Below are positions 32,653 to 57,854 of a stretch of 64,000 nt of DNA, in pieces; positions within the stretch are counted from its first letter, which is position 1, and every line of letters begins with the position of its first letter. Under the pieces are notes generated by a model. That model had not been told where the DNA came from, ran no database searches, and saw only the letters and a list, made by a program, of their open reading frames with translations. The DNA lies in assembly GCA_003176045.1 (NCBI GenBank), contig PSRM01000068.1, positions 60,084-124,083 on the forward strand, written 5' to 3'. A program made the translations under genes and the position numbers. Source of the stretch: Verrucomicrobiota bacterium. Its GTDB lineage: Bacteria > Verrucomicrobiota > Verrucomicrobiia > Limisphaerales > UBA8199.

Positions 32653-33528
32653 TTAAGCGGCTGCCGCCAGTTCTTCTGTTGCGATCTTGCCGCGGATGTA
32701 GTCAGCAGCCCGCTGTGCTGCCGAAGCCCCGCGCAAAATCACGCGCGAATCTCCCCGAAATACTGTTGACCATCCACCAATGTAACTCGCCTGCAATGCT
32801 TCGCTGGTGGAGTTCTTTATTCCGGCGAACGCGCACAAAAACGCCGCGCCGAACTCGGCGACCAACTCCTCGAACGAGTATTTCTCAGCTATATCCCCCT
32901 TCGCGTCGGCGAACCGGTTTAAGCGCTTTCCATGGCCACTACTGTGCACAAGCTCATGAAATAAAGTCGCATAATATTCATCCCCATTCTCGAATTGGCT
33001 GAGGTGGGGCAAGGTAACCCGGTCGAGTCCACGGTTGTACACCGGTTCCGCTACCGCCGAGTGAACAATCTCCGGCTTGCTCGGCATCACTTCTAACAGC
33101 AATTCAGCAGTCCTCAGCCGTTGGCTATGCGGAGGTGCCGTGTCCTCCTCCGGTTCTGCGATTCCCTCCACCTGGTCGAGATTGAACACGCTGCTGGTGA
33201 AGGGAACACAAGGCGCGAGATTTTCCTTTCCGGTCTTCTCTCGCAATCGGTCGATCTCCTCTGGGGTGCGCCACTTCCAGTAAACCACAGTCGTAGCCTT
33301 CTCCCCTTTTCGGACATGACCCCCAAGCGCCAAAGCCTGGCGATAGGTTATCCAATATCGAGAGGCCAATCCGGCTGCACACAAGATCAGGATATTAACT
33401 CCTCGGTATTCTCTTCCGGTGGCCAGGTTTCTGGGCAGTCCCGTCTTCCAGGTTTTTCTCCAAGGAATCTGGCCGGCTTCAAGCTGTTTTAAAATCCGAT
33501 TGGTAACTTCTTCATAAATGTTCAACAT
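32653..33528 (-). CDS. ardC: ArdC-like antirestriction protein (N-terminal ssDNA-binding DUF1738 plus zincin metalloprotease domain)
   Basis: Track ORF trimmed to MLNIYEEVTNRIL (AGGAA 7 nt upstream). Motifs: IPWRKTW, YRGVNILIL, and C-terminal LFHELVHSSGH. Confidence 0.85.
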   Translation of the reverse strand: MLNIYEEVTNRILKQLEAGQIPWRKTWKTGLPRNLATGREYRGVNILILCAAGLASRYWITYRQALALGGHVRKGEKATTVVYWKWRTPEEIDRLREKTGKENLAPCVPFTSSVFNLDQVEGIAEPEEDTAPPHSQRLRTAELLLEVMPSKPEIVHSAVAEPVYNRGLDRVTLPHLSQFENGDEYYATLFHELVHSSGHGKRLNRFADAKGDIAEKYSFEELVAEFGAAFLCAFAGIKNSTSEALQASYIGGWSTVFRGDSRVILRGASAAQRAADYIRGKIATEELAAAA

Positions 33529-33604
33529 TTTTGATTTCCTCTTGTGAATAAGCGGGCGCGAGAAATAGAAACGCCGCTGGAAATCATCCAGCGGCGGGTT
33601 GGTC

Positions 33605-33889
33605 TTAGTAATCCTCGGGAAGCAGAACAGTTGTCGCTGAACGGTCAGCTTCGGTGATGATCCAAAACCGTGTTCCGTTTCGGTCGCGATAAGCTGAAAG
33701 CAAGCGATTGCCATCGCGCAGCGACAAATCATTCATTTCCGCATCTTCGGGGCACACCTCACCCCAATCGCCACGCGCATGCCGTTGCAACCCTGAGTAA
33801 GTATCCTCGGGATTCAACTCGCGCAAAGCGTTCGAGGTGATGACCGTCTGACCCAGTGGGAAAGTATTCAATCGTATTGTGTCGTCCAT
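33605..33889 (-). CDS. 94-aa conserved small element protein (GDWG...ITEADRxxTTVLLPxDY family)
   Basis: Trimmed to MDDTIRL (GGAGGA upstream). It has a paralogue at 51853..52293 with the same C-terminal motif. Confidence 0.6.
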   Translation of the reverse strand: MDDTIRLNTFPLGQTVITSNALRELNPEDTYSGLQRHARGDWGEVCPEDAEMNDLSLRDGNRLLSAYRDRNGTRFWIITEADRSATTVLLPEDY

Positions 33890-33997: not shown

Positions 33998-34444
33998 ATG
34001 GGGAGAGGTCGAACGCGGTTGCAACTGAAGTCAGGGGAACGGGCGCAAATGCTTAGACTGCGTCACTTTCTTCCCAGCCCCCGTGACCGCGAACGGCTCA
34101 AAGCCGTTCTCTTGGCGGCCAGGGGGCGGCATACGCTGGAAGACATCGCCGAAACACTGGGGCGTTCGCGTTCCACGATTCAAAACTGGTTGCGCAAATT
34201 CGCTAGAAGCAGAGTCTCCGGCCTATTGGAGAGGAATACTCCTCCGGGGTCGGTCAGCCCGTTATCAAGCGCTGAAATTCAAAAACAATTGGCCGCCGGG
34301 CTACGCATAGGGCGGTGGCGATCCGCGGCGCACATTGCGGCCTGGCTCCAGGAGGTTCACGGTATTACACGGGCACGGAAATCAATCTACTACTGGCTGC
34401 GAAAAAAGGGTTGGACCTCCCCGCACGGCAGAGATCGCCGCTGA
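33998..34444 (+). CDS. Stand-alone HTH/winged-helix protein resembling the N-terminal DNA-binding part of IS630-type transposases
   Basis: LEDIAETLGRSRSTIQNWLRKF and AHIAAWLQEVHGITRARKSIYYWLRKKGW. No DDE domain follows. Confidence 0.55.
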   Translation: MGRGRTRLQLKSGERAQMLRLRHFLPSPRDRERLKAVLLAARGRHTLEDIAETLGRSRSTIQNWLRKFARSRVSGLLERNTPPGSVSPLSSAEIQKQLAAGLRIGRWRSAAHIAAWLQEVHGITRARKSIYYWLRKKGWTSPHGRDRR

Positions 34445-34543: not shown

Positions 34544-35371
34544 CTACGAAGCCTGATTTACGTGAACCCGCAGGGCTTCCGCCAGGGCTTCGCGGACCCG
34601 ATCCTGCGTGGACTCCCCAGAAGTAAATTTGACGATTACGGACCCAGCTGTGAGTTTTATCGTACAGGTCGCTTTTCTGCTCCTGGTGGTTGAGCCCTTG
34701 CCTCTTTCCTTCTGCGCCTCGCGCACGGGAAGATGTCCCTCCTTTGCCTCCTGCCAGAGATCCTTTTGCCGCTGTGGGTCCTCTTCCTTCGCAATTTCGA
34801 GCAGCACGGATTTGTTGGCTTGTTCAGACGTCTGAACATCGGCCAACAGCTCGGGTTTGATATCGAGGATGCGCAGTGTTTGATTTATTGCGGTCAACGA
34901 CTTGCCGAGCCTTCGCGCTAAATCGCGCTGCTTTAGGCCAAACTCATCCATGAGCCTTTTGAATGCGCGGGCTTCCTCAACCGGATGCAAATCCTTACGG
35001 TGCAGGTTTTCAACCAGTTGCAGTTCCAATCGTGATTGTTCGCCGGCAGTCCGCACCAAAACCGGGATTGTTTCTCTTCCAAGGCCGCGGCAGGCGGCGA
35101 ACCGACGCTCGCCGGTAAGAATTCGAAAACGACCGCCCTCGACCGCCTCGACCACGATCGGTTGAACAACACCATGTTCCCGAATCGAAAAGGCTAAATC
35201 ACTCAATTCACCCAGGTTCTTGCGGGGTTGGTTTGGGTCGGGGTCGATCAAGCTGAGGGGGATCTCAGCAAATCTCTGCTCATCCCGGCCAACAGGATCG
35301 AAGTCGAGTTGACTGTCACCTGCAGCCTGGCGGGCAAGTCGGTCTTTCAAACCTACGGCCATAATGTGCAA
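34544..35371 (-). CDS. parB: ParB/Spo0J-family partition protein
   Basis: IDPDPNQPRK, EHGVVQPIVV, RILTGERRFAACRGLG. AGGAG lies 5 nt upstream of the ATG. Confidence 0.9.
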   Translation of the reverse strand: MHIMAVGLKDRLARQAAGDSQLDFDPVGRDEQRFAEIPLSLIDPDPNQPRKNLGELSDLAFSIREHGVVQPIVVEAVEGGRFRILTGERRFAACRGLGRETIPVLVRTAGEQSRLELQLVENLHRKDLHPVEEARAFKRLMDEFGLKQRDLARRLGKSLTAINQTLRILDIKPELLADVQTSEQANKSVLLEIAKEEDPQRQKDLWQEAKEGHLPVREAQKERGKGSTTRSRKATCTIKLTAGSVIVKFTSGESTQDRVREALAEALRVHVNQAS

Positions 35372-36117
35372 ATCTCCTGTGCAAGCTGCTGGTAATCCCG
35401 GGCTGCTCGGGTGTGCTGTGCGATCGCGACGACATCCCTTGGCTCATCTCCGCTCTGTGCGCGATTCAGCATTTCGCAGCGCCCAATTCGCGTTTGTAGC
35501 ACTTTGTCGCGGACAGGTTCCAGGGCCTTCTCGACTAGGCCGTTGGTCACAGTGGCCTGTGCCATCACCATGGTGACCAGAATACGATACTCCCAATGTG
35601 GTGCGAATCGTTTGACGCTATGTAAGATTTCAAGGAGGTCGCCGAGTCCGCGAAGCGCATATCCCGAAGGTTGGGTTGGGATTAAAAAGTGACTTGCTGC
35701 AACCATAGCGTTTACGGGCAGCACGCCCATTGTGGGCTGGCAATCGATGATAACGAAGTCAAAACCTTGCAATCCTTCGAGCGCGTGCTGCAAGCGCTGC
35801 TCGCGGAAGTGTTTCGTGTGCAAGAGCGAATCAGCCTTGGACAAGGTAATCGAAGCGGGCGCGATCCGAAGATCCGGCAGGTAGGTGTCGGAAATGATCG
35901 AGGAAATACTTTGGGACTCGGACAATAACACGTCTCCGATAGTCCGTCCGGTGAATTGGTCGGGATCTAGACCGAGCCCAACGGTGGCATGCGCCTGAGG
36001 GTCCAGGTCGATGACCAGCACCTTCTTGCCCGCTCGGCATAGGCACGCACTGAGATTCACAACGGTGGTGGTTTTTCCGACACCGCCTTTCTGGTTGGCA
36101 ACTGCGAGGATCTTCAC
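35353..36117 (-). CDS. parA: ParA/Soj-family partition ATPase
   Basis: MKILAVANQKGGVGKTTT deviant Walker A. GTG start preceded by GGAGG. Confidence 0.9.
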   Translation of the reverse strand: MKILAVANQKGGVGKTTTVVNLSACLCRAGKKVLVIDLDPQAHATVGLGLDPDQFTGRTIGDVLLSESQSISSIISDTYLPDLRIAPASITLSKADSLLHTKHFREQRLQHALEGLQGFDFVIIDCQPTMGVLPVNAMVAASHFLIPTQPSGYALRGLGDLLEILHSVKRFAPHWEYRILVTMVMAQATVTNGLVEKALEPVRDKVLQTRIGRCEMLNRAQSGDEPRDVVAIAQHTRAARDYQQLAQEICTLWP

Positions 36118-37985
36118 GATGTTGCCTCCCCGTTTTCCGACCTTGTCCCAGGTCCTCTGTTGAATGACCGTCTGTTCAGCCGTTTATCCCACGCCCAAAA
36201 ATCGAAAACCATCCCGCCCGCTCGATTTCGACAGAACTCAGCAAAATCAGACAAACGACTCTCATCGCTGTCAAACAGGGCCAGGCGTTCGGCTGACATG
36301 AGGAAAGGCTTCATGGATTCTCGCAATTTTTGGCGGTGTTTGAGATAAGCGTCATAAACGGCCGGATTCGTTTGCTGTAGCTCGTTCTCTGCTATCCGCA
36401 GGTAATTGAGGTATTCGGGCGTAAACGCCTTCTGATGAGCATCCCTCGCCTCGCCAAGGGCCTTCCGCGCGCGGGCCGCGCCTTCTGTTTGCAGCAATCG
36501 AAGAAACTTATCGCCGAAGAGAACCAAGGTGAATGAAAGGTTCGGCCTGGCTTTCGGGTCTCCGTAGTGTCTCTCGCGCATCATGAGACCGAAACGTCTG
36601 CCCCATTCGGGCACCAGTGATTCGTTTCTTTCTTGAGCCAAAAGTCGCGCAACAAATTTTGTGGCGAGCTCGATTTCCCTCTCGAACGGTTCGGTGCCTG
36701 CTTCTCCCGAAAGGCCATGATAGCCGGCGTAGTAATGGCTGGCGAAATGCCTTCCCAGCTCAAAAGCGGGGTCGTTAGCTGCGTTATGCTCCGCAGCCTG
36801 TGGTTTTGGCCAATCCCCCTCAATCGCCCGGCGCAGCATGCCCAAGCGGCTTTTTTTGACGTTCCGCTGCGGAAGCCATTGGACTTGGCGCTCGATAACC
36901 TGCCAGGGGCTACTCCCAGCCAATCGCTTTGCCGTAGCCTCATCGAACCCAGCCTTTCTGAGCAAGTTCAAAGCCGAAAGAGCCGCCGCAACATCTGCTG
37001 CTGTTGGTATATTTTTATGTTCTTTTTTAATTCTTATGCCGTTCGCCATTTTTGACTCCTCCCCGTTTCCCTTTTCCGACCGGCTCCATTCACCTTTTTT
37101 GACTGCCGCCCCGTCCACCTTTTTTGACCGGTCTAGTATCCGTTCACCTTTTCTGACTGGATTGGGATCACTTTGACCAGGGGCGTTTTCATCCGAATGC
37201 TGCGATGCCGCCCACCGGATACAGTACGTGGTAGGACAGCTTTTTCTTCCTGCTGCTGGGTCAAAGCGGCCAGCTTCTTTCTGCTCAATGTAACCGGCCC
37301 TCAAAGCGAAGCTCACCGCAGAATGGACGTGCTGCCGCGACATATTGGTTAGCCTACTCAGCTCGGTTATGGACTTGCTGACAGCTACCGCGCGTTCCCC
37401 CTCTTCAGTCCATTGGATTGAGTAAAAAAGCAGAGCGCCAACGACGCGGATGACAGACAGCCGTTCTCGTGGGAGCAGGATATCGAAGAAACAATTGGGA
37501 ATGTTCTTGCGCGCCGTCTTAGCCAGAATAACTGTCCCCGCACCCTTTCCCTCCTCTTCCAAAGCTGCCGGCCCGTTGTGAAATCCTTGGAACTGTTTGG
37601 GATTATGGCAGCATTTTTCGCTGTGTTGCCAACACAACTCGTACACTCCGCCTCGGCCCGCTTGACCTTTTCGGGCAGGGCAGGGTTCTTCCACACAACG
37701 CAAGCAGTGGTTCTGCATCGCTTCGCGAAGCGCTTGCGCGATCGACTCGCGCGAGACCCCAGCCTCTTCAATCAGTTCCTTGTATGTGAACCGCAACTGC
37801 CCGCGAACTGCATCGCCTCGCTTATCCGCGTAGCCCAGGACTTTGCGTAGAGCATAGCCCACTATCCGGACAGCGCCTCGCGAACGGTGGGGGATGATGA
37901 CCGTGAAATACTGAATGGGCACGAAGGTGACGTTTGAATTGAATTCCGGAAAGCCGGCGATGGTCGATTTAACTTTCCTGGGCAC
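36114..37985 (-). CDS. 623-aa protein with two predicted winged-helix motifs; possible replication initiator or regulator
   Basis: FTYKELIEEAGVSRESIAQALREA and ITELSRLTNMSRQHVHSAVSFALRAGYIEQ. It heads the parAB operon (GTGA overlap). The function is inferred only. Confidence 0.45.
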   Translation of the reverse strand: MPRKVKSTIAGFPEFNSNVTFVPIQYFTVIIPHRSRGAVRIVGYALRKVLGYADKRGDAVRGQLRFTYKELIEEAGVSRESIAQALREAMQNHCLRCVEEPCPARKGQAGRGGVYELCWQHSEKCCHNPKQFQGFHNGPAALEEEGKGAGTVILAKTARKNIPNCFFDILLPRERLSVIRVVGALLFYSIQWTEEGERAVAVSKSITELSRLTNMSRQHVHSAVSFALRAGYIEQKEAGRFDPAAGRKSCPTTYCIRWAASQHSDENAPGQSDPNPVRKGERILDRSKKVDGAAVKKGEWSRSEKGNGEESKMANGIRIKKEHKNIPTAADVAAALSALNLLRKAGFDEATAKRLAGSSPWQVIERQVQWLPQRNVKKSRLGMLRRAIEGDWPKPQAAEHNAANDPAFELGRHFASHYYAGYHGLSGEAGTEPFEREIELATKFVARLLAQERNESLVPEWGRRFGLMMRERHYGDPKARPNLSFTLVLFGDKFLRLLQTEGAARARKALGEARDAHQKAFTPEYLNYLRIAENELQQTNPAVYDAYLKHRQKLRESMKPFLMSAERLALFDSDESRLSDFAEFCRNRAGGMVFDFWAWDKRLNRRSFNRGPGTRSENGEATS

Positions 37986-37991
37986 TGTTCA

Positions 37992-38204: not shown

Positions 38205-39394
38205 GCTTCTGTCCCTCCGTGAGACGGTCGTAACACACCATGCCCTGTCATCACAAGGCACCTCGCAATGCCGTTCGGTTTCATAACAGATCTCGATTCT
38301 CGATTTGTCATCCGCAGCCCGTGAAGAATCGGTTGCAACAAAATTCGTGCATCTCGGTTTACCCAAATCGAAACCGTGTTAGAACTTCACGCAATGGGAG
38401 GTTCTTGATCCCAGCAACGTCAATGTGCGTGCCAAACGCGTTCTCGACGTTCTTTGAGATGGGCTTGAGCGCCCGCAAAACCGGACTTACCATCCGGCGA
38501 AGGGGACGGATTTACCACCCGTCATGCTCATGTCCCGTAGAGCGTGGTGCCACGAGAGTGGCCCGCCACGTTCGAGAGAGGCTTCTGGAAGTAATCTTTG
38601 GCTACCAACCAAAAGTAATCTCCAGATTCTATCTCATGCAATCGAAGTGAAGTTCGCGCGTGCGAATGCGGGCGAGCGGGACATGCTTCGTCGTGAAATT
38701 CGGCGGAGTTGTCAGATTCAAATGGGTGAGCAGTGATTGAGAGGCGCTGCAAATCCTTCGGCGGGATTCGGACCACAATCACGCATCGCGTGATCAATCG
38801 GGTGTAAAGCTCGGCAGGTTCGTTTAACGCACGCTGGCGTCGGGAGCCTCCCGGTGGTGACATCGAGGAGCCGAAAGCGACAACTTTCGGGGTTCTGCTC
38901 AAAGCGCAGACCGTGAAAAGCTCAACGACGAGAGGGGCGGAAGCCCTTGCCAGTAAGCAACAGCAGAGACGGAGCCGAATCGGGAAAAACCTGCACAGGA
39001 TGGATAAATCGCCGCTTCTGTATTCGAGCGATTGAAAACAGTGTGTGGTGGCACACTGGCGACTATGGCAAGGCGGGAGTCTTGCGCATACCTGGCAGGT
39101 CTGGACGATAAATACGTCCTTACCAACGTGACTGCTGTAGCGAAGAGTCTGAATAACCGTGCAAGGAGTTTTGGCTTCCGGAGTGGTATCCGGTGCCGGT
39201 TTCGTCAACCGGTGGTTCAAACGCCAACTCTGATGAGAGTGTCTCCAGTAGGAATGCGCCCCCGCTCGCAAGAGCAAAGGTGCAACGCAACTTCAGCAAG
39301 GCAGTTGAAGCGGCGTGTGCGTGCAACGGGTGGTACCGGGCACATTTGCACACACGAAAGAGACGACGGGATATACCTATCTCAAAGAGGTCGT

Positions 39395-39425
39395 GGGCAG
39401 GTGGAGTTCAAACCTTCACCTGCCC
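39395..39425. other. Strong 12-bp hairpin in an ORF-poor region
   Basis: GGGCAGGTGGAG-TTCAAAC-CTTCACCTGCCC, with one G-T wobble. Confidence 0.5.
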
Positions 39426-39828
39426 ATTTCCGTGGAAGAGAACTGCGTTCAAGCCGGCGCAACCTGGGGACAGGCAGCGCTCGTTTGAAGGCAGCAGCCG
39501 TATTGGAGTGATTGCGATGACAAGCTGAATCAAAGAGGTTTTATTGCAGGCAACCGCTATTGATTGCGCAACTGCAATACAAGGAATACAGCGCGCGCCG
39601 GCGTCAACCCAAAAGACGAAAACGACGGCGCCGTCTGTGCATCGAATGAAGTTAGGTTTTTGTGAGCCAGACCATTAGGCATCCATGAGGTTTGCCACGC
39701 GAGGTTGCTCGGCTTGTAGCCGCTACTTGCAGCATGGCATTGAGGATTTTGGGCTTTCGGAGGGTTTGCGCCCAAAAAAATGCAACCTCCACTTTTGACG
39801 CCGCCATAACATCGGTTGGGAGACTAAA

Positions 39829-40461
39829 ATGACCTACCGATGTGTGGCGGCATCAGTTGCTGGGTTCGTGCAACAAGTGGCCGTGGGCTACATCGCCCAC
39901 GGTTACTATTTTTACGTGGCGGGTCGGATTCCGAATGGGAAAGAACCGTCCAAAACTGACTCAAAGATCATCGCCCAATACGGCATTGATGTCGCCAAAT
40001 GGACGAGGTCACGGCGTAAGCGAGCGGGCCAGGCTAATGTCCAATATCTGCGTTACGACCAATTCTACGTAATACTCGCGACTCACGGTGAACACGCGTT
40101 CTTCGTAGAGGAAGGGGACCGCATAAGGGATATACGCCAGCATCCGCTCCGATTCTTTGATTATTCGATTGGATGCCGAAAGTCCCGTCGAGGAGGTGAA
40201 CTGCACCCTTCGGTCCGGATTTCCCGGAAAGCTTTTCGCCAGTTGAAAACTCGGTTTGAGAAATCAGCGGTCAGTTCCACTTCTGACGAGCTATGGCAAG
40301 CACTGCGAAACATGCCGTTCGAACCTTACGCTCCGGTCCGCGATCAGTTCAGGATCCTCCTGCGGGCAGTGAATCGGATGCGAAAAACGGCGGGGCTGGA
40401 GTTAGTCCCTTGGACCGCTTGCCGCTTGCGCCGGTGTCCGGTAAAACCCTTCTCAGGTTGA
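39829..40461 (+). CDS. 210-aa hypothetical protein, paralogue of 46618..47208
   Basis: GGGAGA SD-like sequence upstream. Shared blocks are listed here with the 46618 copy in brackets: YFYVAG (FFYIAG), IRDIRQHPLRF..YSI (ARDMRQHPLHCMGYTI), RKTAGLELVPW (REAAGLPLVPR). Confidence 0.6.
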   Translation: MTYRCVAASVAGFVQQVAVGYIAHGYYFYVAGRIPNGKEPSKTDSKIIAQYGIDVAKWTRSRRKRAGQANVQYLRYDQFYVILATHGEHAFFVEEGDRIRDIRQHPLRFFDYSIGCRKSRRGGELHPSVRISRKAFRQLKTRFEKSAVSSTSDELWQALRNMPFEPYAPVRDQFRILLRAVNRMRKTAGLELVPWTACRLRRCPVKPFSG

Positions 40462-46438: not shown

Positions 46439-46617
46439 AACCGCCGAAGGTTATTCCCAAGGTTTCTTCTACATGGCTTTTGAGGACGTGTGCCAACAAA
46501 CAATCCTCCACCAAACTGAGGGATCTCCTCAGAAATTGCCTGCTGCCACGATGAAAAGGGCTTTGAAGCTGGTTGAATAATTGAACCAGAATTAATGATT
46601 TCCTGGACCTATTTCCT

Positions 46618-48753: not shown

Positions 48754-49257
48754 TCAAACACGGTTGCTCGCGCTGCCGATTCCAGAGGCAGCCGATTCGT
48801 CTTCCGAGATGTTTGGCGGGTGTCCCTTCAATTCTTTAAGCCCGTCATCTTCGATGCCGGCATGTTCGCGGACATTTCTAGCTGAGATGGTCCAGTTGTT
48901 ATCCCAATATGCAACAACGTCTCGCTTGAAACCTTGATAATTGCGAAGCGCGATTCTTTCGTCGCCGGTGGCGTCGAGCATTAGCGCCAAGGCCAACTGT
49001 GCAGGCCCGCTTCCCTCGTATCCCCACTCGAAACCGCACGGACTATGGTTTCGAACTTCGAGGCACAACGGCAGAGTTCGAGACGCCTTTCCCCGTCTGG
49101 AGCCTCGGACGGGCTCCTCGACCCAAACTTCGACTTTGCCATTCCTGCGCCTGATACCATGATAAGCTTTTTGATACGGAGCCGGCATTGTCAAAGCGGA
49201 GAGGGCTGTTTCTGAAACCTGCTTTCTGACTCTTTGGTTTGTATCTTGCCGTTCCAT
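48754..49257 (-). CDS. 167-aa hypothetical protein, paralogue of 47438..47914
   Basis: GGGGAGG lies 7 nt upstream. It shares the GFEWGYEGSGPAQLALAL core. Confidence 0.65.
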   Translation of the reverse strand: MERQDTNQRVRKQVSETALSALTMPAPYQKAYHGIRRRNGKVEVWVEEPVRGSRRGKASRTLPLCLEVRNHSPCGFEWGYEGSGPAQLALALMLDATGDERIALRNYQGFKRDVVAYWDNNWTISARNVREHAGIEDDGLKELKGHPPNISEDESAASGIGSASNRV

Positions 49258-49743: not shown

Positions 49744-50547
49744 TTATGCCGCAATCCTTTCCCGGGCGTGTTCCACATATCTCGTTCGATACGGTACGAC
49801 ACACTCGTGCAACATAGCCGAGGTCGGAACGTGAGCAAGCGGAGCTGAGCGTAGCATCGCTCTGACCTGTTGTCGGATGAATGCGCCCATCTGAGGCCAA
49901 GTGATCCGATGCATCTCAACAGCATTAACTGCCGGCGGGATTGGCACCTGGTGTGAGCGAGCAACGAATTCCCCTCCATCAATCACGTCGGTGACTTTGT
50001 GAATTGTAAGGACAAGATGCTTTCGTCCATCCCGCACCATAGCGGCAATTGGATCGGGGCCGGGATACGACGGCCACGTGTCGCCGCTGTGATGGAAATT
50101 GAAGAATCCAAGCGACGGAAAGTTGATCAAAGCAGTCGGAATCTTCTGGCCGAATGTTGCCATTAGGCAAAGCTGCGGCCGCCATTCTTCCAAAAAAGCG
50201 GTGAAGAATTCTGGCGTTTTTATGCGACCCACATAACAAGGAATCTGCCGGGCCGCCACCAAGAGCGGGACCATTTTTTCCTCATATTGTGCGTGGGGGT
50301 ATTTCCAGAGGCGAACATCAGCGTGCGAAAATGGCTGACGAGGATCGTCCGTTGCCACACCGACAATTTCGACCTGCCGTGCCAGGTCCCCCGAGAGCAA
50401 TTCTTTGATTACATGGTAACCGCCATGGAAGCTCCCGAACACGGCCACACGACATTTAGTTCTGGGATCATCGAGCCGACGGTGGGGAAGGCGGAGGATG
50501 TTCGCTCCGCATATTGCCGAAGAAGCAGCCGCATTCATTTCACGCAA
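49744..50547 (-). CDS. Formyltransferase-fold protein (Fmt/PurN N-domain-like)
   Basis: FNFHHSGDTWPSYPGPDPIAAMV resembles the NxHxSLLPxxRG loop. It is followed by KVTDVIDGGEFV (Asp of the catalytic triad). TTG start. Confidence 0.6.
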   Translation of the reverse strand: MREMNAAASSAICGANILRLPHRRLDDPRTKCRVAVFGSFHGGYHVIKELLSGDLARQVEIVGVATDDPRQPFSHADVRLWKYPHAQYEEKMVPLLVAARQIPCYVGRIKTPEFFTAFLEEWRPQLCLMATFGQKIPTALINFPSLGFFNFHHSGDTWPSYPGPDPIAAMVRDGRKHLVLTIHKVTDVIDGGEFVARSHQVPIPPAVNAVEMHRITWPQMGAFIRQQVRAMLRSAPLAHVPTSAMLHECVVPYRTRYVEHARERIAA

Positions 50548-50808
50548 GTTTTGCTGCGCGCGAACAAACTGCGGGAGCTAAAAGGGCGTGACCCAATCAC
50601 ACCCTCGCTAGAGGCACCGCGAAGCGCCCATCAAGAAAGTGCGTCAAGCCACGCCCAAGGGGTGGGCGCAGCCTTTGCAGCTTGGTCTCTTGATTGAAAA
50701 TTCGCGGTTTTCTAGCGAGACCGCAGCCGAAGCTACGCAAATTTATGTTGAGTAGATGTCGTGCCAGCGGCCGTAAAAAGCAAGATTTTTTTGAAAAGTT
50801 CGTGGAGG

Positions 50809-51828
50809 CTACGGCATCCACTTCGGCCGACCGAGAGCTTTCAGGACACCGGTCCTGCGAAGAAGCCGTTCGACGTAAGCGACTGTATGTTGGGCATGAT
50901 CCGAGTTTTCGGCAGATGACGCGGCCAAACCGCGCTCGAAAAAAAAGGTCCCACTGGAGTGGTGAACGACAGGTTCGGGGCGTAGGTCTGGAGAGCCGTT
51001 ATCCAGAAGCCATGCCAGCACATTCATCATAAAGCGGGCATTGTCAGGCCGGGTGAGCAGACCGAATCGTCCTGTTTCGAACGCGTGCGGCCCCCCAATC
51101 AGCACAAATCGGCCCCCTCCGTGCAATCCTGCAACCGCTATCGGAAGAGAGGCGAAACTGATTCTACGAGCCGAGCGATTGAAGCTGATGCAGGTCCCGC
51201 CGGCTGAAAGAGCCAACGGTTGTGCTTCGGCACCCGGCAAGATGTTGAAAGTCGCCGTCGTTCGCCAGCGAACACTGCTCACATGAAGATTTGACCAGTG
51301 TAGGGGAAGCAGATTGCGGGGCGTATCAAAGAATGCTTCGAGAGGGTTCATGGTACGCAGTGTCTGCAAATCGATCACCGCGTCATCGTTCAAAAGGCAA
51401 CCAAGCGGGCTCACAAGTTCGCGTAGATTGGAGCGCGTAAACCAATCGCCGAAACGATAAGCAAAAGCGAGCAGCCTGCCGCCGCTCCGCACAAAGTTGA
51501 GGATGTCGCGAATATGTTCCGACGCGAACGATGACTCAGCGAGTGGCGACCAGCATTCCTTCGCAGCATTGTAGGCCCCGGTTGGGGGTGGAATCACGAG
51601 CAAGCGGGCATCTGTCAAACGCGCCTGCGATAGCGGCTGACTGACGGGAGCGCAACGGCAGCCCATACGGCACAGCAACTCCATCAGGCCAGCATAATTC
51701 GTATGCATTTCACGGGACGTGAATCCGGTTTGTGACCAGTTGGGCTGCCCGTGACTGGCATCGAAAATCGCGAGGGATGGTTTGCGCTCCTTGATTATGG
51801 AACCCACTTGCGCGCTTTCTCGCTTCAT
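50809..51828 (-). CDS. 339-aa hypothetical protein, possible GATase1-like/DUF4350-like fold
   Basis: The pattern AIFDASHGQ...LLVIPPP...FVRSGGRLLAF is reminiscent of DUF4350/GldG-like domains (from memory, weak). Confidence 0.4.
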   Translation of the reverse strand: MKRESAQVGSIIKERKPSLAIFDASHGQPNWSQTGFTSREMHTNYAGLMELLCRMGCRCAPVSQPLSQARLTDARLLVIPPPTGAYNAAKECWSPLAESSFASEHIRDILNFVRSGGRLLAFAYRFGDWFTRSNLRELVSPLGCLLNDDAVIDLQTLRTMNPLEAFFDTPRNLLPLHWSNLHVSSVRWRTTATFNILPGAEAQPLALSAGGTCISFNRSARRISFASLPIAVAGLHGGGRFVLIGGPHAFETGRFGLLTRPDNARFMMNVLAWLLDNGSPDLRPEPVVHHSSGTFFFERGLAASSAENSDHAQHTVAYVERLLRRTGVLKALGRPKWMP

Positions 51829-51852
51829 CTCCCTTCTCGCTCAGAACTAGTT

Positions 51853-52293
51853 TCAGTAGTCTGCCGGAAGCAGCACGGTTGTGACTCTTCGGTCGGCCTC
51901 GGTTATTACCCAAAATTTTTTGCCGGTGCTTGATTCATACTTGGAAAAGAGCCGTTCACCATCACGCAATGCCTTGTCATTTCGCTGCCAATCCGCTTGG
52001 TCCAGGACCCCCCAATCTCCGGCGGCATGCCTTTGAACGGCTTTAAGGATCTCGTCGGCGGGTACGGACTTGGCAACTCCTTCGGTTACACATAGACGGC
52101 CAAAAGCAAACCGGGGTTTTGCTTTCACCTGCATCTTGACCTGGGGCTCTAATGGCGAGAGGAATCTGGTTGGGTCCGATTCAGACGCCGTAAGTGCATG
52201 TCTTTGGAATTCCTCATAAGGCAAGGGAACTTCACCACGTCGCTCTGCGTGCAGTTGGTGGACTCGGTACAACGCATCCTGGGCATTATTCAT
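51853..52293 (-). CDS. 146-aa paralogue of the 33605..33889 small protein
   Basis: Trimmed to MNNAQDAL (GAGGA 6 nt upstream). C-terminus HAAGDWG...FWVITEADRRVTTVLLPADY. Confidence 0.6.
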   Translation of the reverse strand: MNNAQDALYRVHQLHAERRGEVPLPYEEFQRHALTASESDPTRFLSPLEPQVKMQVKAKPRFAFGRLCVTEGVAKSVPADEILKAVQRHAAGDWGVLDQADWQRNDKALRDGERLFSKYESSTGKKFWVITEADRRVTTVLLPADY

Positions 52294-52377
52294 GAAGGGT
52301 CCTCGTAAATGATAACTGGTTTTCGTCCATAACACGATTTTACTGGTGAATGCAACAAGGCTGACCGGCGGACTCCG

Positions 52378-55300
52378 TCAACCTGGTTCATCCGAAGACT
52401 TTCCCTCGCCTTGCTGGTCAGGTCCGTTTGCTGCTTGCTGCGGTTCAAGCTGACCGGATGTTTGGCTTTTTGTTAAGTCGAGTTCATCTTCAATTTCGCG
52501 CTGTCGTTGCACCAAAGCCGCGAGGCGGTCCGCATACTCGAACGGTGCGTCCACCTGCGCTCGGCTGTCGGCGAGCCGCTTCTGAGTATCGGCAATATTC
52601 TGTCCAATCGTTGCCGCGAGCTCTTCAAGATGCTGAATTGTATGCTCCACGGAACGTATGGTGCCGTGAGCGGTGTCTGTTACTTTGGCGACATAAGTCG
52701 TGGCTCCCTTTATGACGATTTCCGGCCCCTGCATGAAGTTGTCAGCAACGAATAAGTCGAAACCTGCAATCTTCCCGATCTGTCGTTCAGAACGGCCGCC
52801 GCGCATCTTTTCGGCGCGGCGAATCAACAACTCGCCAGCGATCCCTCGGTCTCGAATCTCCTGACCTTCTAGAATCATCATGAACTTATCTCCGTTCGTG
52901 TCCTCACGGACCTTTAGGTCCTGCCGTACGGCTTCAAGTCGCTTCTCATGTGCTGGGATTTCATCAGCTAAATGTCGAACACGAGTTCGGAGCTTGAACA
53001 TGGTCTCTTGGTGTTCGCAATGCAGACGGCTCAGGCGGCCGACTTCGGCGTCAATTCGAGCTTTTTCGATGACCAGGGGATTTCCTGACGCGATTGCCTT
53101 GACTTCGGCATAAGTAAGAGCCGCGCCGTCTATGTCCTCAATGCGCCGCAGATCGCTTTCTCCGGTCATGACCTGGCTGATGAACTTCGCCTTCGTCTCC
53201 AATACTTGCCACATATATGCGTCGAAAGATTCTTCGGTAACATAGCGGTATATTTGGACCTCGGCGTTGGAGTTACCCTGCCTAAGGATACGTCCCTCGC
53301 GCTGCTCCACATCAGCGGGGCGCCACGGTGCGTCCAGGTGATGGAGAGCGATAAGGCGTTCCTGCACGTTAGCGCCAGTCCCCATTTTTTGCGTGCTGCC
53401 GAACAGGACGCGAATTTTTCCAGCCCTAACGTCTTTGAAAAGCGTGAGCTTCGCGGCGTCACTTTCGTAGTCCTGTATGAACGCGATCTCGCCCGCGGGA
53501 ACTCCAGCGAGGATGAGCTTGTCGCGCATATCCTCGTAAACAGAAAATCCTTTGTTTTGAGTGGGGATTGAGAGGTCACAGAAAACAAGTTGAGTGGAGC
53601 GATTGTTCATGGTGTCGCGCCAAATGCGCTCAATTTGGCGCACTGCTTGGTTAATTTTGCTATCGCCATGGTCTGGCAAACTGGCTTCGTGAAGCCGGAG
53701 GTCCAAAGCAGCCTTGCGCCCATCCGTGGTGACCAGAAGCATATTATCCTCGCGAGGATCAACACTCCCTGTCTTCAAAGCTTCGGCTCGTTCCACGAGA
53801 GATTGAACGATTTCCTTCAATTCGGGTGAGCAGGGGGCACTGACTACCGTGGGTTTGCCGCCGTGAAGGTCGGGCACGGGCAGCTTCAGCATCTCCTGGG
53901 TTTGAATGTCGGCGACCTGCCGAAACATCTGCATCAATTCAGGCACGTTTATGAAGCGCGCAAAGCGAGTGTGAAGCCGATACCCCGACCCATCCGGGGA
54001 GAGCTCGAGCGCGGTCACTGGTTCGCCGAAGGTAGCCGCCCACGAGTCAAAGTGAGCAACGCTTTGACCCTTGAGCAAACTCATTTCGAGAAAGCGCTGC
54101 ATCGTGAACATCTCAGCGACGCTGTTGGCGATGGGTGTGCCAGTGGCGAAAACAACTCCACCTCCACCGTTGATTCGCTGTACATGTCCAACTTTTAGGA
54201 ACATGTCAAAAGCCCGTTGTGAGGCGGTCTGAGGAAGCCCGGCGATGCGGGTCATTTTCGTGACATAGAATAGATTCTTAAAATAGTGCGCCTCGTCCAC
54301 GAATATGCGGTCCACACCAAGTTCCTCGAACGTCAGACCGTCGTCCTTCTTCTCATCTGCCGAAAGTTCCTTGAGTTTTGTTTCCAACTGTTTTTTCGAG
54401 CGTTCCAGCGCTTTTACGATTCGGGAATCTCCATCCTTTCGCTGTTGTTCGATTGCGAGCGCCAGCTCCCGCAAGTTCGCTTTGAAGAATTCTTCCTGTG
54501 TCGCGCGGGCGACGGGGATTTTTTCGAAGCCTGAGTGAGTAACGATCACGGCATCCCAGTTGCCGGTTGCGATTCGGCTCATCAGGGTCTTTCGCTTGTC
54601 CTTTTCGAAATCGTCCTTGGTGGCGACCAGAATATTCGCCCCGGGATATAACGCTAGCAGTTCTGATGAGAATTGACCCAGCATGTGATTTGGAACCGCG
54701 AAGAGTGTTTTACGCGCTAATCCGAGGCGCTTCAATTCCATGGCGGCCGCAACCATTGCGAACGTCTTCCCGGCGCCGACGACATGGGCGAGCAGGCAGT
54801 TGGGGGTCTGTAGAATCCGCCATACGGCGGCTTTTTGGTGGGGACGCAGCGTGATTGCCGGACTTGCGCCTGGCAAGGTTAAGTGGTCTCCGTTGAAAGT
54901 TCGTAATCGGGTGTGGTTGAATTCATCGTTGTATTTTCGGACAAGGCGTTCGCGTCGCTCATCATCCCGCCAGATCCATTGCTTGAAGCGCTCCTTCAAC
55001 TTCTCCTGCTTATCGCGGGCGGCCTCAGTGGCAGGCCCATTGATCACGTCGCGGTCCGTGTCGGGGTCATGGTCGTACACTGTCGGAACCCGCAAGTTGA
55101 GCGCATCCTCAATCAACTCAATAGCGCTCCTGCGGTCCGTACCCCATTCAGTAGTGTTGGCAACACTGAAGCGGGCGCCGTATCCGCCCCGTATAACCCA
55201 AAGGCCCAACTGTGGCGCATGGCTGACAGAAATGCCTTCCTCTCCAAGTAATTCAGCAGTGAAGATTTGAACATCTTGGGCCGGAATCCAGGTGCTTCCC

Positions 55301-57255
55301 AATCGAGCATCAATTTCCGGCGCAGTTAAGTCTGTCGGCTGCACACTCTTGAGTGCGTTGACATTTCCCGAAAATTGCTCGTCAGCCAGTGCGGCTGCTT
55401 CGGCTGCTGTGAGTTTGGCGCGAACATTCCCGGATAGGTAATCGTCTTCCGTTTCCCAGCGGTTCGTTTGTGGATTAAGAAAAATCGCGCCTTTCAATTC
55501 TGGCAAAAACTCGGAAGCTTTGCGGTGGAGCAGGCCCGCGAGGTAATCTAGGTCAACGCAGCCGCGTTCGTTCAGCGTAACGAGCAACGCTTCATGTGGA
55601 GCGTCGGTCTGGACTGTGGGCCTCTTTTTCTGGATTGTTCGCTCGCGAAAAATAGCAGCCTTCGCCGCACGGCCGGTTTCTTCGTCATAGAGCTCCAACG
55701 AAAGGAGAAGCGGCAGGTCAGGATCGCCGCGAAAAGCCGACGTGTTCGCGCGTTCTGAAATTGGGCCGCACCGGGCGACAAAGCTATCATAACTTTGATT
55801 GAGCTGTTCGCGCGCGGCCAGCACCTCGTCATCCGGCGTGCCATTGAGTTGCGAAGAAAGACATCGCCTTACGGCATCCCGCACGCGAATGAGTCCTCGA
55901 ATTCTCCGGGCAACTTGTGATGAGAGGCCGGTCAAAATCCGCAACGAGTCGCCATCCCGCACTGCGAGCTGATCATTTACGACAGTATAAGCGTTCGGTT
56001 TTATGTGTTCAGGAGCAGGGAACGTCTGCTCCAAAGTTGGCTTGGCGACTCGCCGTGCCTCTGGCTGAAAGACATCTTTGGGTAACAGGGCGATAACTTC
56101 CGCCAGTTGTTCGGTGAGGCGGCGGCCGTTGGGGGCGAGTGTAGGTTCGCCACGCGCATACATCCGACCCTCAAGTCGCATCTCGCCAAGCATCATTTCT
56201 GGTCGAGCGGCGAAGTACTCGTTGACGGGGATGGTCTCCCCCTGCGAGTTAGTTATCTCGCTCAACTCCTTCCAGGCCGGTCCTGTTGGTATTTCGCCCG
56301 GAATCCTTTTGCGGAACATGATAATGTCCGTGGTCACCTCCGTGTGCGCATTCCGTTTGAACGCGTCGTTTGGTAAACGAATGGCACCCAAAAGATCAGC
56401 CTGCTGTGAGACGTATTCTCGAAGCGCCGCATCCACCTTGTCGAGGGTTCCACGTGACGAAACGAACAGAATCAGCCCGCCCGGTCGGACTTTCTCCAGT
56501 GCGGCAGCGAAGAAGTAGTCGTGGATTACGAAGTTCCAGGACTTGAATCGCGGATCGAACGGCTTGTAATCACCGAATGGAATATTCGAGATGGCAACGT
56601 CATAAAAACCGTCAGCGAGTTTTGTTTCTTCAAATGGTTGGCGTCGAATGTCAGCATCGGGGTAGATCAATTTTGCCAGTCGGGCGGTTATGGAATCGAT
56701 CTCGACACCTGTGATGAGAGATCGTTTGTGCATTTCTTCGGGCATTAACCCGATGAAATGGCCCAAACCGAGAGCGGGTTCGAGAATCCGTCCATGTGTG
56801 AAACCAAACCGTGCCACTGCCGAATACATTGAGCGAATGACATCTGGCGCCGTGTAATGAGCGTTGAGGGTGGTCGCGCGAGCGGAGTCGAGTTCATCCT
56901 CCGACAGCAACGATTCAAGCTGCTCCCGCTCTTTCCTCCATTGTTCATTCAATGAGTCAAAAACCTGCGGCAACCCGCCCCAGCCGACGTAGCGGATCAA
57001 AGTTCGCTTTTCCTGATCGGTGGCAGGTCGGGTATCGGCTTCAAGTTGCTTGACAAGTTCGATGGCCCGCAGGTTGTCGCGGCATTTTTGCTTTAGGGAG
57101 CCGACGCCTAACCTATCTGCGTCTGTGATCCTATAGTTCCGCTGGTTCCGCAACGGCTCTGGTTCACTGCTCGGCGGGGTTTGCGAGGCCGATTCGTCTG
57201 GAACTTCTATGTCTCGGGCGGGAGGAAGATGTATCTCTCCCGAACCATTTCCCAT
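52378..57255 (-). CDS. Giant N6-adenine DNA methyltransferase plus SNF2/DEAD helicase fusion (P1 DarB-like architecture)
   Basis: MTase motif I LEPALGLGHFIG and motif IV AISNIPFGD. Helicase Walker A HVVGAGKTF, DEAH box VDEAHYFKN, motif VI EQREGRILRQGN. The start is set at Met95 of track ORF 52378..57537; the true start is uncertain. Confidence 0.85.
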   Translation of the reverse strand: MGNGSGEIHLPPARDIEVPDESASQTPPSSEPEPLRNQRNYRITDADRLGVGSLKQKCRDNLRAIELVKQLEADTRPATDQEKRTLIRYVGWGGLPQVFDSLNEQWRKEREQLESLLSEDELDSARATTLNAHYTAPDVIRSMYSAVARFGFTHGRILEPALGLGHFIGLMPEEMHKRSLITGVEIDSITARLAKLIYPDADIRRQPFEETKLADGFYDVAISNIPFGDYKPFDPRFKSWNFVIHDYFFAAALEKVRPGGLILFVSSRGTLDKVDAALREYVSQQADLLGAIRLPNDAFKRNAHTEVTTDIIMFRKRIPGEIPTGPAWKELSEITNSQGETIPVNEYFAARPEMMLGEMRLEGRMYARGEPTLAPNGRRLTEQLAEVIALLPKDVFQPEARRVAKPTLEQTFPAPEHIKPNAYTVVNDQLAVRDGDSLRILTGLSSQVARRIRGLIRVRDAVRRCLSSQLNGTPDDEVLAAREQLNQSYDSFVARCGPISERANTSAFRGDPDLPLLLSLELYDEETGRAAKAAIFRERTIQKKRPTVQTDAPHEALLVTLNERGCVDLDYLAGLLHRKASEFLPELKGAIFLNPQTNRWETEDDYLSGNVRAKLTAAEAAALADEQFSGNVNALKSVQPTDLTAPEIDARLGSTWIPAQDVQIFTAELLGEEGISVSHAPQLGLWVIRGGYGARFSVANTTEWGTDRRSAIELIEDALNLRVPTVYDHDPDTDRDVINGPATEAARDKQEKLKERFKQWIWRDDERRERLVRKYNDEFNHTRLRTFNGDHLTLPGASPAITLRPHQKAAVWRILQTPNCLLAHVVGAGKTFAMVAAAMELKRLGLARKTLFAVPNHMLGQFSSELLALYPGANILVATKDDFEKDKRKTLMSRIATGNWDAVIVTHSGFEKIPVARATQEEFFKANLRELALAIEQQRKDGDSRIVKALERSKKQLETKLKELSADEKKDDGLTFEELGVDRIFVDEAHYFKNLFYVTKMTRIAGLPQTASQRAFDMFLKVGHVQRINGGGGVVFATGTPIANSVAEMFTMQRFLEMSLLKGQSVAHFDSWAATFGEPVTALELSPDGSGYRLHTRFARFINVPELMQMFRQVADIQTQEMLKLPVPDLHGGKPTVVSAPCSPELKEIVQSLVERAEALKTGSVDPREDNMLLVTTDGRKAALDLRLHEASLPDHGDSKINQAVRQIERIWRDTMNNRSTQLVFCDLSIPTQNKGFSVYEDMRDKLILAGVPAGEIAFIQDYESDAAKLTLFKDVRAGKIRVLFGSTQKMGTGANVQERLIALHHLDAPWRPADVEQREGRILRQGNSNAEVQIYRYVTEESFDAYMWQVLETKAKFISQVMTGESDLRRIEDIDGAALTYAEVKAIASGNPLVIEKARIDAEVGRLSRLHCEHQETMFKLRTRVRHLADEIPAHEKRLEAVRQDLKVREDTNGDKFMMILEGQEIRDRGIAGELLIRRAEKMRGGRSERQIGKIAGFDLFVADNFMQGPEIVIKGATTYVAKVTDTAHGTIRSVEHTIQHLEELAATIGQNIADTQKRLADSRAQVDAPFEYADRLAALVQRQREIEDELDLTKSQTSGQLEPQQAANGPDQQGEGKSSDEPG

Positions 57256-57458
57256 GCCTGACCGTGGGCTTGCTCGGGAGTCAAACCCTGGCTGATCAAA
57301 TCGCGGCGAACCCGATCCATTTCCGCTTCCGTTTTCTCCTCGGCTTCCAGCAGCATCACCGGAAGCTGGCGCTTCGATTCCAGTTCCTCGACCATTCTCG
57401 GCAGAAACTCCCGCCAATGTTTCTCGGCCATTAAGCCGTATTGTGTCAGTGGTTTCAT
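57207..57458 (-). CDS. 83-aa small helical protein (TnpV-like by loose resemblance)
   Basis: Trimmed to MKPLTQYGLMAEKHWREFLP...AWEMVRERYIFLPPET. It reads as a genuine protein, whereas the overlapping frame of the giant ORF is G/S-rich low complexity. Confidence 0.55.
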   Translation of the reverse strand: MKPLTQYGLMAEKHWREFLPRMVEELESKRQLPVMLLEAEEKTEAEMDRVRRDLISQGLTPEQAHGQAWEMVRERYIFLPPET

Positions 57459-57854
57459 ACGTGTAGGTACTCTGAGCAGAGGAAAAGAGGTCGAGTTGCA
57501 ATTCCTGGTTCGCTTTGCTCCTCGCGACCGACCGCATAGTCCCCTCTCATGGCGCTCCCGTGAAGCAACTCGAATTACCGCACCTTGTCCATCCAAGTCA
57601 ACAGATCTCAAACGACGTTCCTGGTCTTCATCCTTCATCCTTCATCCTGACCTCCGGCGCTGAGCAGCTTCGGGCGAAATTGCCTCAACCGTCCGGTGCG
57701 GGGGGTCAGTTGTTAAGGTCGATTCGGGCAACCGTTGTCGCTCCCTCCCCGCTTCGCTTCCCCGGGGCGGAATAGTTGAAGAAGTCGAGTTCTCCAACAG
57801 CCAGCATCAGCTTAAGCCATCAATAGAATCTGTAGGTTCCGCTTTGGTCACAAC

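Follow-up and report, generated by a model that had tools for sequence, protein, structure and literature searches.

Predicted transfer origin, anti-restriction genes and a putative circularly permuted group II ribozyme gene in the probable leading region of a Verrucomicrobia conjugative element

We analyzed a 64-kb stretch of contig PSRM01000068.1 (the window), which comes from a Verrucomicrobia metagenome-assembled genome (MAG). A listing of its open reading frames (ORFs) and Pfam scans showed a MOBF-type conjugative element. The type IV secretion system (T4SS) block (TrbI/VirB10, a VirB8-like protein and a VirB4-type ATPase) lies at 9361-21219 on the minus strand. The mob operon is on the plus strand, with genes for a ClpB-like AAA_2 ATPase (27040-27954), the type IV coupling protein (27951-29396; T4SS-DNA_transf, E=2.9e-18, and TrwB_AAD_bind) and a TrwC-type MOBF relaxase-helicase (29488-32235; TrwC, E=7.6e-73; AAA_30, E=1.8e-37). 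Next comes a 126-aa ORF of no assigned family (32247-32627, plus strand). It was kept at 42-67% identity in the related loci L011, L012 and L020 and may encode a relaxosome accessory protein. In distant relatives an ORF of similar size also follows the relaxase gene, as judged from ORF positions only. Directly after the mob operon and this ORF begins the region studied here, 32653-57537. An earlier reading of the letters without database searches (the sequence-only reading) had counted 22 genes in it, 18 on the minus strand, and had compared it to the leading region of a conjugative plasmid, rich in anti-restriction genes. Our curated gene list matched these counts. The genes named at that time, ArdC, RadC, DUF932, ParB, two DUF6166 copies and a 1719-aa methylase-helicase, were all present by Pfam.

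The direction in which this region would be transferred depends on the transfer origin (oriT). Locating oriT had been named as one way to check the leading-region proposal, and we can offer a computational prediction: a conserved nic-like site of R388 geometry at 29410-29437 on the plus strand. This core sits in the 91-bp gap separating the coupling-protein and relaxase genes. It consists of an 8-bp inverted repeat, CTCCTATC and GATAGGAG, with a 3-nt loop, followed by the 9-nt spacer TTGGTGTCT. The predicted nic falls between T29437 and A29438, giving CTCCTATC-GAA-GATAGGAG TTGGTGTCT/A (here and below, a slash before the last bases marks the nick). Close relatives of the element came from metagenomes (L011, L012 and L013, with relaxases 68-70% identical to that of the window). 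Between the window and L012/L013 the gap contains the conserved block GCTCCGCGAACT CTCCTATC G(A/C)A GATAGGAG TTGGTGTCT AACGTTTAAAAATTTCAAC. The L012/L013 copy (9922-9949) differs at one hairpin-loop base only, although the coding DNA beside it is about 66-68% identical; across the three relatives, coding DNA is about 64-72% identical to the window. When both strands of the 64 kb were searched for a hairpin stem of 6 bp or more, then 9 nt of spacer and TGTCT/R, this site alone came up. The TrwC site of R388 has a short-loop hairpin followed by the 3′ single-stranded nucleotides 17-25, with a U-turn just 5′ of the cleavage; the nick comes after position 25, and A or G is required next to it, at position 26 (PMC4176350). 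The hairpin, the 9-nt spacer ending in TGTCT and the purine past the nick are shared by the R388 IR2-nic core (PMC4176350) and the window site, but the hairpin sequences are unrelated. We regard 29410-29437 as very probably the nic region.

Other candidates for the transfer origin were rejected. Known nic strings (R388 GTATTGTCTATAGCCC and the F nic) matched at chance level only. In the two gaps upstream of the mob operon and near the T4SS genes (26871-27039 and 21220-21375), the local alignment scores with L012/L013 were within the shuffle range, no significant structure was seen under dinucleotide shuffling (z=-0.65), and neither gap had a hairpin with 9 nt and TGTCT/R. The hairpin at 32628-32647 (GAGCCCCC-GTGA-GGGGGCTC, with A-run and T-run flanks; z=-3.1) is an ordinary bidirectional intrinsic terminator, on which the mob operon and ArdC converge.

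Ten distant MOBF relatives (relaxases 32-35% identical, mostly on Bacteroidota-like contigs) have an analogous block with a different hairpin, CCCTAAGC-nnnn-GCTTAGGG AAGATGTCT/GAT. It was always on the relaxase-coding strand and upstream of that gene, at a distance of either 151-240 bp or 3.1-4.3 kb. The nic motif of this distant clade, GGGRAGATGTCTGAT, was absent from the window, which belongs to a clade with a hairpin of its own. On nicking, an HUH relaxase becomes joined to the 5′ side, and the strand exits 5′ to 3′ with the hairpin last (PMC4176350, PMC11541004). Therefore, a nick at 29437/29438 on the plus strand would make the plus strand the transferred strand (T-strand), with entry proceeding rightwards. 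Once the nic is granted, there is little doubt about this polarity. The region then occupies ORFs 3-24 after the predicted nic, 3.2-28 kb away, and because the plus strand would be transferred rightwards from nic, it would be a leading region by position. By this analogy with known relaxases, it is quite likely that the region enters first.

ArdC (32653-33528, minus strand) is the third ORF past the predicted nic. Its Pfam matches are ArdcN (PF08401, E=1.7e-32) and MPTase-PolyVal (PF18818, E=4.2e-28), corresponding to an N-terminal domain that binds single-stranded DNA (ssDNA) and a zincin metalloprotease; the motif HELVH (HExxH) is at residue 191 of the 291-aa form. We compared the eight loci that have ArdC (the window, L012, L003, L005, L009, L014, L017 and L021). 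In all eight, the ArdC homologue was found 1.8-5.9 kb 3′ of nic and on the opposite strand. It comes after the relaxase gene in the window, L012, L003, L009, L014 and L021, and between nic and the relaxase gene in L005 and L017. This placement across relatives is the strongest support for a leading region. Upstream of ArdC lies orf94 (33605-33889, minus strand), which encodes a 94-aa protein 77% identical in L012 and matching the C-terminus of the 160-aa protein encoded at 51853-52335 (46% identity, E=3e-28). The gene at 33998-34444 on the plus strand, also kept in L012, encodes an HTH_23 DNA-binding protein (E=7e-13) that is probably a regulator. In L011, which has no ArdC, a ParB homologue directly follows the relaxase and the small ORF. 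ArdC, orf94 and the HTH_23 gene are thus an insertion at a hotspot. The noncoding block GCGAGGGGAAAATTTTAKTTGG, in an AT-rich palindromic context, was observed 5′ of ArdC in L005 (9713-9738), L009 (14138-14163) and L017 (9793-9814). It may be an ArdC promoter or operator, and it was absent from the window.

At the far end of the region, the 24th ORF after the predicted nic encodes a DarB-like protein with an N6-adenine methyltransferase and an SNF2 helicase (52378-57537, minus strand). Its ORF has 1719 codons, and relatives start about 90 codons later. The methyltransferase has an NIPF variant of motif IV. PADLOC matched its residues 204-411 with the mad2 methyltransferase (E=4e-10) and gave SNF2/DrmD/BrxH helicase matches; these are generic helicase and methyltransferase models. 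BLASTP against DarB of phage P1 gave three colinear blocks: the methyltransferase (E=1e-18), the helicase N lobe (E=7e-23) and the C lobe (E=2e-13). Because of these three blocks, the term DarB-like denotes homology here, beyond resemblance. We found 7302 homologues at E<=1e-20, and the best 120 are 69-100% identical. They are often named "N12 class adenine-specific DNA methylase" by JGI. In 1392 PLSDB plasmids and 131 phage records we found full-length homologues with 39-48% identity; in some RefSeq phage records they are called "DarB-like antirestriction". By homology, the window enzyme would be predicted to act in anti-restriction.

Four smaller genes on the same strand lie beside it (49744-52335). 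They encode a formyltransferase-like protein (49744-50547; Formyl_trans_N, E=2.5e-12; fmt, E=6.6e-11), a 74-aa protein, a 339-aa DUF4350/GIFT-like protein (50809-51828; DUF4350, E=7e-5) and the 160-aa protein (51853-52335). In L033, L034 and L037, a formyltransferase homologue was located no more than about 5 kb from the DarB-like gene, and the 339-aa and 160-aa proteins also have homologues there in L034. The latter locus, on a 2.25-Mb NCBI contig, shares with the window the order giant gene, 160 aa, GIFT-like, formyltransferase, DUF932, RadC, 210 aa, RNA and 623 aa, at 45-79% protein identity. At the position of the RNA (see below), L034 has a 1.5-kb gene-free gap between the 210-aa and 623-aa genes. 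L037 and L033 keep parts of this order. The formyltransferase cluster had been taken as an embedded anti-defence candidate; our comparison instead places it in a conserved backbone linked to the DarB-like gene. Judged by this synteny, the formyltransferase-like, GIFT-like and 160-aa genes appear to be better candidates for a DarB-linked function than the variable cassettes described below.

Between ArdC and the accessory genes lies an operon for ParB (34544-35371; ParB_N, E=1e-22; HTH_ParB, E=5e-17), ParA (35353-36117; AAA_31, E=1e-49) and a 623-aa protein with weak winged helix-turn-helix matches (36114-37985), all on the minus strand. The operon was kept in L012, and 623-aa homologues occur in L034 and L037. 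ParB had been listed among the minus-strand genes of the region. It belongs to this conserved operon, which is a maintenance module and not an anti-defence one.

The predicted gene at 38528-39277 on the minus strand was not conserved at the protein level. The block around it has 70-79% nucleotide identity to L012, L034 and L037, is conserved above the neighboring genes and has indels that are not multiples of three. RNAalifold on the four sequences predicted 316 pairs. Of the cells in these pairs, 97% were paired, and 76 pairs had compensatory changes. In the controls, slid alignments gave 5-12 compensatory pairs, and none of 500 shuffles reached the observed 76. Since the ORF lies within a conserved structured RNA with such indels, it is spurious, and the count of 22 genes includes one that does not encode a protein.

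This RNA, about 1.1 kb long (about 1135 nt), lies at 38465-39600 on the plus strand between the 623-aa/ParA/ParB operon and the 210-aa gene; we assign it as a predicted circularly permuted (CP) group II ribozyme. Rfam Intron_gpII matched domains D5-D6 at 38538-38632 on the plus strand with 36.9 bits (gathering score 40; E=3.7e-5). The putative parts are, in order along the plus strand, helices P1/P2, D5 (38540-38573), D6 (to 38632), a 37-nt linker that would be the predicted circle (38633-38669), the 5′ splice site GGGCG at 38670 and D1-D4. About 900 nt of helices follow GGGCG, and D1-D4 is a candidate assignment that was not made helix by helix. In known CP group II ("T-large") RNAs, D5-D6 come first and the 5′ splice site reads GGGCG; their circles measure 15-86 nt, additional helices (P1/P2) stand on the 5′ side, an ORF is lacking, and they are often on plasmids (PMC8637638). 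The window RNA agrees with those of Roth et al. 2021 in its D5-D6 at the 5′ side, its 37-nt linker within the 15-86 nt range, GGGCG, P1/P2 and the lack of an internal ORF (PMC8637638). It also lies beside a maintenance module, as in pPNAP05 and pTT8; on pPNAP05 the RNA is near the replication origin (PMC8637638). It differs in being longer (about 1135 versus about 900 nt) and in coming from a Verrucomicrobia-type element, a phylum not listed in that study (PMC8637638). A neighboring AcpG gene is frequent but not obligatory (PMC8637638); no match came up when pTT8 AcpG was compared by tblastn with the window, L034, L037 and L012. Rfam did not match the known CP group II RNA region of pTT8, which was therefore unusable as a positive control, and no primary-sequence similarity was detectable between the window RNA and the pTT8 copy. 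The RNA is encoded on the plus strand, so it could not be transcribed from the incoming strand.

Under the predicted polarity, the following order of events would be expected. The relaxase would make its nick in the plus strand, at 29437/29438 and a short way downstream of the 8-bp hairpin. The relaxase gene, which starts 51 bp past the predicted nic, would enter first, followed by the 126-aa ORF, ArdC, the small paralogue protein (orf94) and the ParB/ParA/623-aa maintenance operon. The CP group II ribozyme gene, the accessory cassettes, RadC, DUF932, the formyltransferase cluster and the DarB-like gene would come next, and the T4SS and coupling-protein genes would be transferred last. Being a plus-strand gene on a plus T-strand, the relaxase gene could not be transcribed from that strand. 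The T-strand would be the template of the minus-strand genes, 18 of the 22 in the region, which makes their transcription before complementary-strand synthesis geometrically possible; this is weakly informative, since the same bias runs window-wide. Once transcribable, the region might serve as an establishment and anti-restriction island, in which ArdC would protect incoming ssDNA from type I restriction, the DarB-like enzyme would counter restriction via methylation and/or helicase activity, and ParAB with the 623-aa protein would stabilize the element. Samuel et al. 2024 (Nature) reported that anti-defence genes are enriched in the first ~29 ORF positions, with the T-strand as template (PMC11541004).

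We put the probability that 32653-57537 is a leading region with an establishment and anti-restriction role at roughly 0.68. The proposal of an anti-restriction-rich leading region gained from the predicted nic polarity and from the placement of ArdC in eight of eight loci, whereas the strand bias, ParB and the gene at 38528-39277 no longer speak for it. Several points weigh against the proposal. The nick site and the polarity are inferred by analogy. Only 2 of the 22 genes come from families with experimentally shown anti-restriction activity, and the known anti-defence content at this one locus is ArdC and the DarB homologue. RadC and DUF932 are often associated with mobile elements, and we know of no proven anti-defence role for either. 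Maintenance genes of an ordinary kind also lie in the region, as does an RNA gene encoded on the opposite strand. Plus-strand folding found no strongly structured element resembling the ssDNA promoter Frpo upstream of its minus-strand units, and its strand bias is no stronger than in the rest of the window. A textbook leading region would have the relaxase gene on the lagging side; here it is on the leading side. Descriptions of the model MOBF plasmids put this gene in the lagging region (PMC11541004, citing de la Cruz 2010), and the element would be an exception to them; the lagging placement is a usual trait, not a defining one (PMC11541004).

The strand bias had been offered as a mark of the leading region. 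Across the whole window, 44 of 55 genes (80%) are on the minus strand, as are 21 of 22 in the T4SS block on the lagging side. The binomial value for 18 of 22 (P = 0.004) ignores operon structure. Because the whole window is equally biased, the bias of the region is not distinctive and cannot diagnose a leading region. It is thus possible, at somewhat less than even odds, that the region enters first but that its orientation is incidental. In that case the bias would reflect element-wide operon organization, the genes would be expressed from ordinary double-stranded promoters after the complementary strand is made, and the leading position would give a head start of minutes at most. The bias of the late-entering T4SS block agrees with this, and so does the normal intrinsic terminator that ends the ArdC unit. 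We also folded the plus strand of the intergenic regions upstream of the minus-strand units and found no convincing Frpo-like ssDNA promoter hairpin: the best value was z=-2.8 at 44275-44558, and the others ranged from -2.1 to +1.6, the +1.6 being upstream of the giant gene. However, ArdC is T-strand-templated in eight of eight loci with three gene arrangements, and an unrelated ssDNA promoter could escape detection. To our knowledge, Frpo-type promoters are known from enterobacterial plasmids only. We consider early expression driven by the single strand in the recipient to be unlikely. A perfect tandem 15-nt repeat, two copies of GTGCATTCCGGACCG at 44475-44504, was seen in the 254 bp upstream of the FGE/beta-CASP operon, adjoining the intergenic stretch with the strongest structure in the region (z=-2.8). 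The repeat may be an operator or part of a cassette insertion scar.

It was also claimed that the modules of unassigned function embedded among these genes are therefore anti-defence candidates, and this claim proved weak. One such module is a two-gene cassette of an MBL/beta-CASP/RMMBL nuclease (40612-42408, minus strand) and a 622-aa protein with an FGE-sulfatase domain (42421-44289, minus strand), both assigned by Pfam. The FGE protein belongs to a small family of 49 proteins. The pair is portable: it was absent from the syntenic relatives L034 and L037, and in L040/L041 (6191-13609) the same pair recurs with identical 12-nt spacing in a chromosomal setting. There, sugar and metabolic genes lie on one side, and on the other come a helicase of 1026 aa (AAA_11/AAA_12-MTES_1575-WGR), a reverse transcriptase gene and three genes of unassigned function. 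This layout resembles a candidate defence island. Given this setting, the cassette is as likely to be defence cargo as counter-defence. We therefore hold it tentatively possible, at less than one chance in two, that some embedded modules are defence or other cargo, above all the FGE and beta-CASP pair and possibly the DUF6166/PRTase-like cassette. Further defence-like cargo on the element (Mrr_cat, AAA_23/SMC-like, AIPR and CHAT-TPR proteins) would fit this. On the other hand, PADLOC gave no match for the FGE or beta-CASP protein, nor for the PRTase-like, formyltransferase or GIFT-like ones. In the element itself, the FGE and beta-CASP cassette lies among anti-restriction genes and shares their orientation, and counter-defence genes may occupy chromosomal islands that are degraded mobile elements.

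The second cassette consists of two DUF6166 genes (47438-47914 and 48754-49257, minus strand; E=7e-28 and 4e-26 for the two copies, which are 51% identical) flanking a gene for a 236-aa protein (47991-48701, minus strand). This protein has FVDNVITTGTT, which is similar to a phosphoribosyl pyrophosphate (PRPP) loop and invariant in the family, as well as PVPAS. Some of its 363 homologues are named "predicted amidophosphoribosyltransferase" by JGI. No match was found in Pfam, NCBIfam or PDB, even with a 20-sequence profile, and a single-sequence AlphaFold model (pLDDT 38.7) was unusable and was not used. As neither profile nor structure evidence backs it, the label of phosphoribosyltransferase (PRTase) stays a lead. 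The whole cassette was absent from L034 and L037; a DUF6166 remnant was found in L033.

It is improbable that the transfer follows the canonical polarity. In that reading, oriT would lie upstream of the mob operon, at about 26871-27039 or in the T4SS/mob divergent region, the T-strand would be the minus strand, moving leftwards, and the relaxase gene and the region would enter last, the latter as a trailing maintenance and accessory region unreadable from the T-strand. In its favor, a relaxase gene is typically lagging near oriT (PMC11541004), the region does hold the ParA/ParB/623-aa operon, and a promoter or oriT would naturally be sought in the 169 bp upstream of the mob operon. Against it, the two gaps (26871-27039 and 21220-21375) lack significant conservation, significant structure and the hairpin with TGTCT/R, the sole conserved nic-like element (29410-29437) has its 3′ side toward the relaxase gene, and the relaxase-ward polarity recurs in the ten distant relatives.

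The remaining genes of the region are as follows. A 210-aa protein (39829-40461, plus strand) has 61% identity in L034, where its gene is also beside the RNA. It is a distant paralogue (24% identity, E=8e-13) of a 196-aa protein (46618-47208, plus strand). Together with orf94 and the 160-aa gene (33605-33889/51853-52335), this gives two paralogue pairs (the other being 39829-40461/46618-47208) besides the DUF6166 copies. A RadC-like JAB-domain protein with a helix-hairpin-helix motif (44544-45164, minus strand; RadC, E=1.6e-38) is 79% identical in L034. In L003 and L005, RadC is placed by the same rule as ArdC, downstream of the predicted nic; in L016, where nic was not captured, it comes after the relaxase on the minus strand, and in L004 it is on the other side of nic. 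The DUF932 protein (45503-46438, plus strand; E=4e-37) is 71% identical in L034. With the 196-aa gene it forms the main plus-strand unit of the region (45503-47208).

Outside the region, genes for a Mrr_cat nuclease, a ParB_N-like protein, an AAA_23/SMC-like ATPase and an AIPR abortive-infection protein lie beyond the T4SS (938-9350), on the late-entering side under the predicted polarity. A block inserted between the T4SS and mob operons (21375-26870) encodes a sigma-70-region-4 and a DUF4384 protein as well as a TPR-CHAT protease-like protein of 1232 aa, and is probably defence or conflict-system cargo. L012/L013 have merely about 200 bp at this place. To the right, just beyond the DarB-like gene, the G+C content falls from 0.54 to 0.48 right of 57.8 kb. 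The flank (57538-64000) encodes a 419-aa protein, B12-binding and HemN-like radical-SAM proteins, a TauD-family dioxygenase and a class II aminoacyl-tRNA synthetase-like protein. These genes could be a cluster for peptide or natural-product modification, cargo, or host DNA past the element end. Three copies of CATCCTT were observed at 57629-57648.

No integrase gene was seen in the window. A gene for a tyrosine recombinase adjoins the DarB-like gene in L035 (8463-9572), L036 (6194-7354) and L037 (7177-8337), whose contigs measure 0.8-3.5 Mb, and ordinary chromosomal genes lie past it in L035. From this neighbor and the chromosomal flank, it seems that the element family includes integrated integrative and conjugative elements (ICEs), in which the DarB-like gene is close to one end. 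In L037 a reverse transcriptase gene of a canonical group II intron was also seen nearby. A megablast search of PLSDB with the part of the window between positions 27 and 40 kb gave no match, nor did a tRNA scan or an Rfam scan at the gathering threshold. Nothing informative came from sequence searches of the PDB with the 623-aa, 419-aa and 236-aa proteins.

We compared the element with known systems. Like the islands of Samuel et al. 2024, it has ArdC and a methyltransferase-containing protein within the first ~25-30 ORFs after nic, with the T-strand as template (PMC11541004). It differs in its Verrucomicrobia MAG host, in having ICEs as relatives of the element, in the partition module and ribozyme gene that its island also contains, and in that no Frpo/ssi-like element, ssb or psiB was found (PMC11541004). 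The rule of that study that the leading region is on the side opposite the relaxase would call the window region lagging (PMC11541004). With R388, the element shares a TrwC-family relaxase and an ArdC that has ssDNA-binding and HExxH metalloprotease domains and lies in the leading region. In R388, oriT is upstream of trwA-trwB-trwC, and those genes enter last; in the window, oriT would be between the coupling-protein and relaxase genes and point into the relaxase gene. Unlike in R388, no ribbon-helix-helix accessory gene was recognized in the window element. The predicted relaxase-first polarity is like that of ICEBs1, a Firmicutes element, in which oriT lies at the relaxase gene's 5′ end and transfer or replication runs into the relaxase and downstream genes. 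The ICEBs1 relaxase is of the MOBT (Rep_trans-like) type, whereas that of the window is a MOBF HUH relaxase. P1 DarB (2255 aa) has the same order of methyltransferase, helicase N lobe and C lobe as the window protein, and both are on mobile elements that need to survive restriction at entry. The window protein has 25-33% identity to P1 DarB, is 500 aa shorter and is not virion-packaged. Its family is large on plasmids and ICEs, and its formyltransferase-like and GIFT-like neighbors are lacking in P1. The region is very probably a further example of the known leading-region type; its predicted transfer origin is unusual, and a putative ribozyme gene is embedded in it.

A broader proposal, less probable than any of the above, is that a very large, undescribed family of Verrucomicrobia/Acidobacteria-type MOBF ICEs transfers relaxase-first and carries a fixed leading-region toolkit that acts in establishment. 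This toolkit would comprise ArdC with its small paralogue, the CP group II ribozyme, RadC, DUF932 and the formyltransferase-like, GIFT-like and DarB-like proteins. For example, the formyltransferase cluster and the DarB-like enzyme might act on DNA or a cofactor, and the 37-nt circle might be an establishment or counter-defence factor.

With the leading-region reading, the concept that leading regions hold anti-defence genes would reach an uncultivated Verrucomicrobia-type conjugative element, beyond enterobacterial plasmids, and 29437/29438 gives a concrete, testable prediction of its nic site. The conserved set around the DarB-like enzyme would be a better-founded new anti-restriction candidate than the variable cassettes that the sequence-only reading had favored. 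The CP group II ribozyme would now be placed within a conserved establishment backbone, which gives a context for tests of its function. If there is a MOBF clade with a leading relaxase gene, surveys that place the leading side by the position of the relaxase would mis-assign such elements. If the whole relaxase-first ICE family is real, surveys that take the side opposite the relaxase would systematically swap the leading and lagging regions of such clades.

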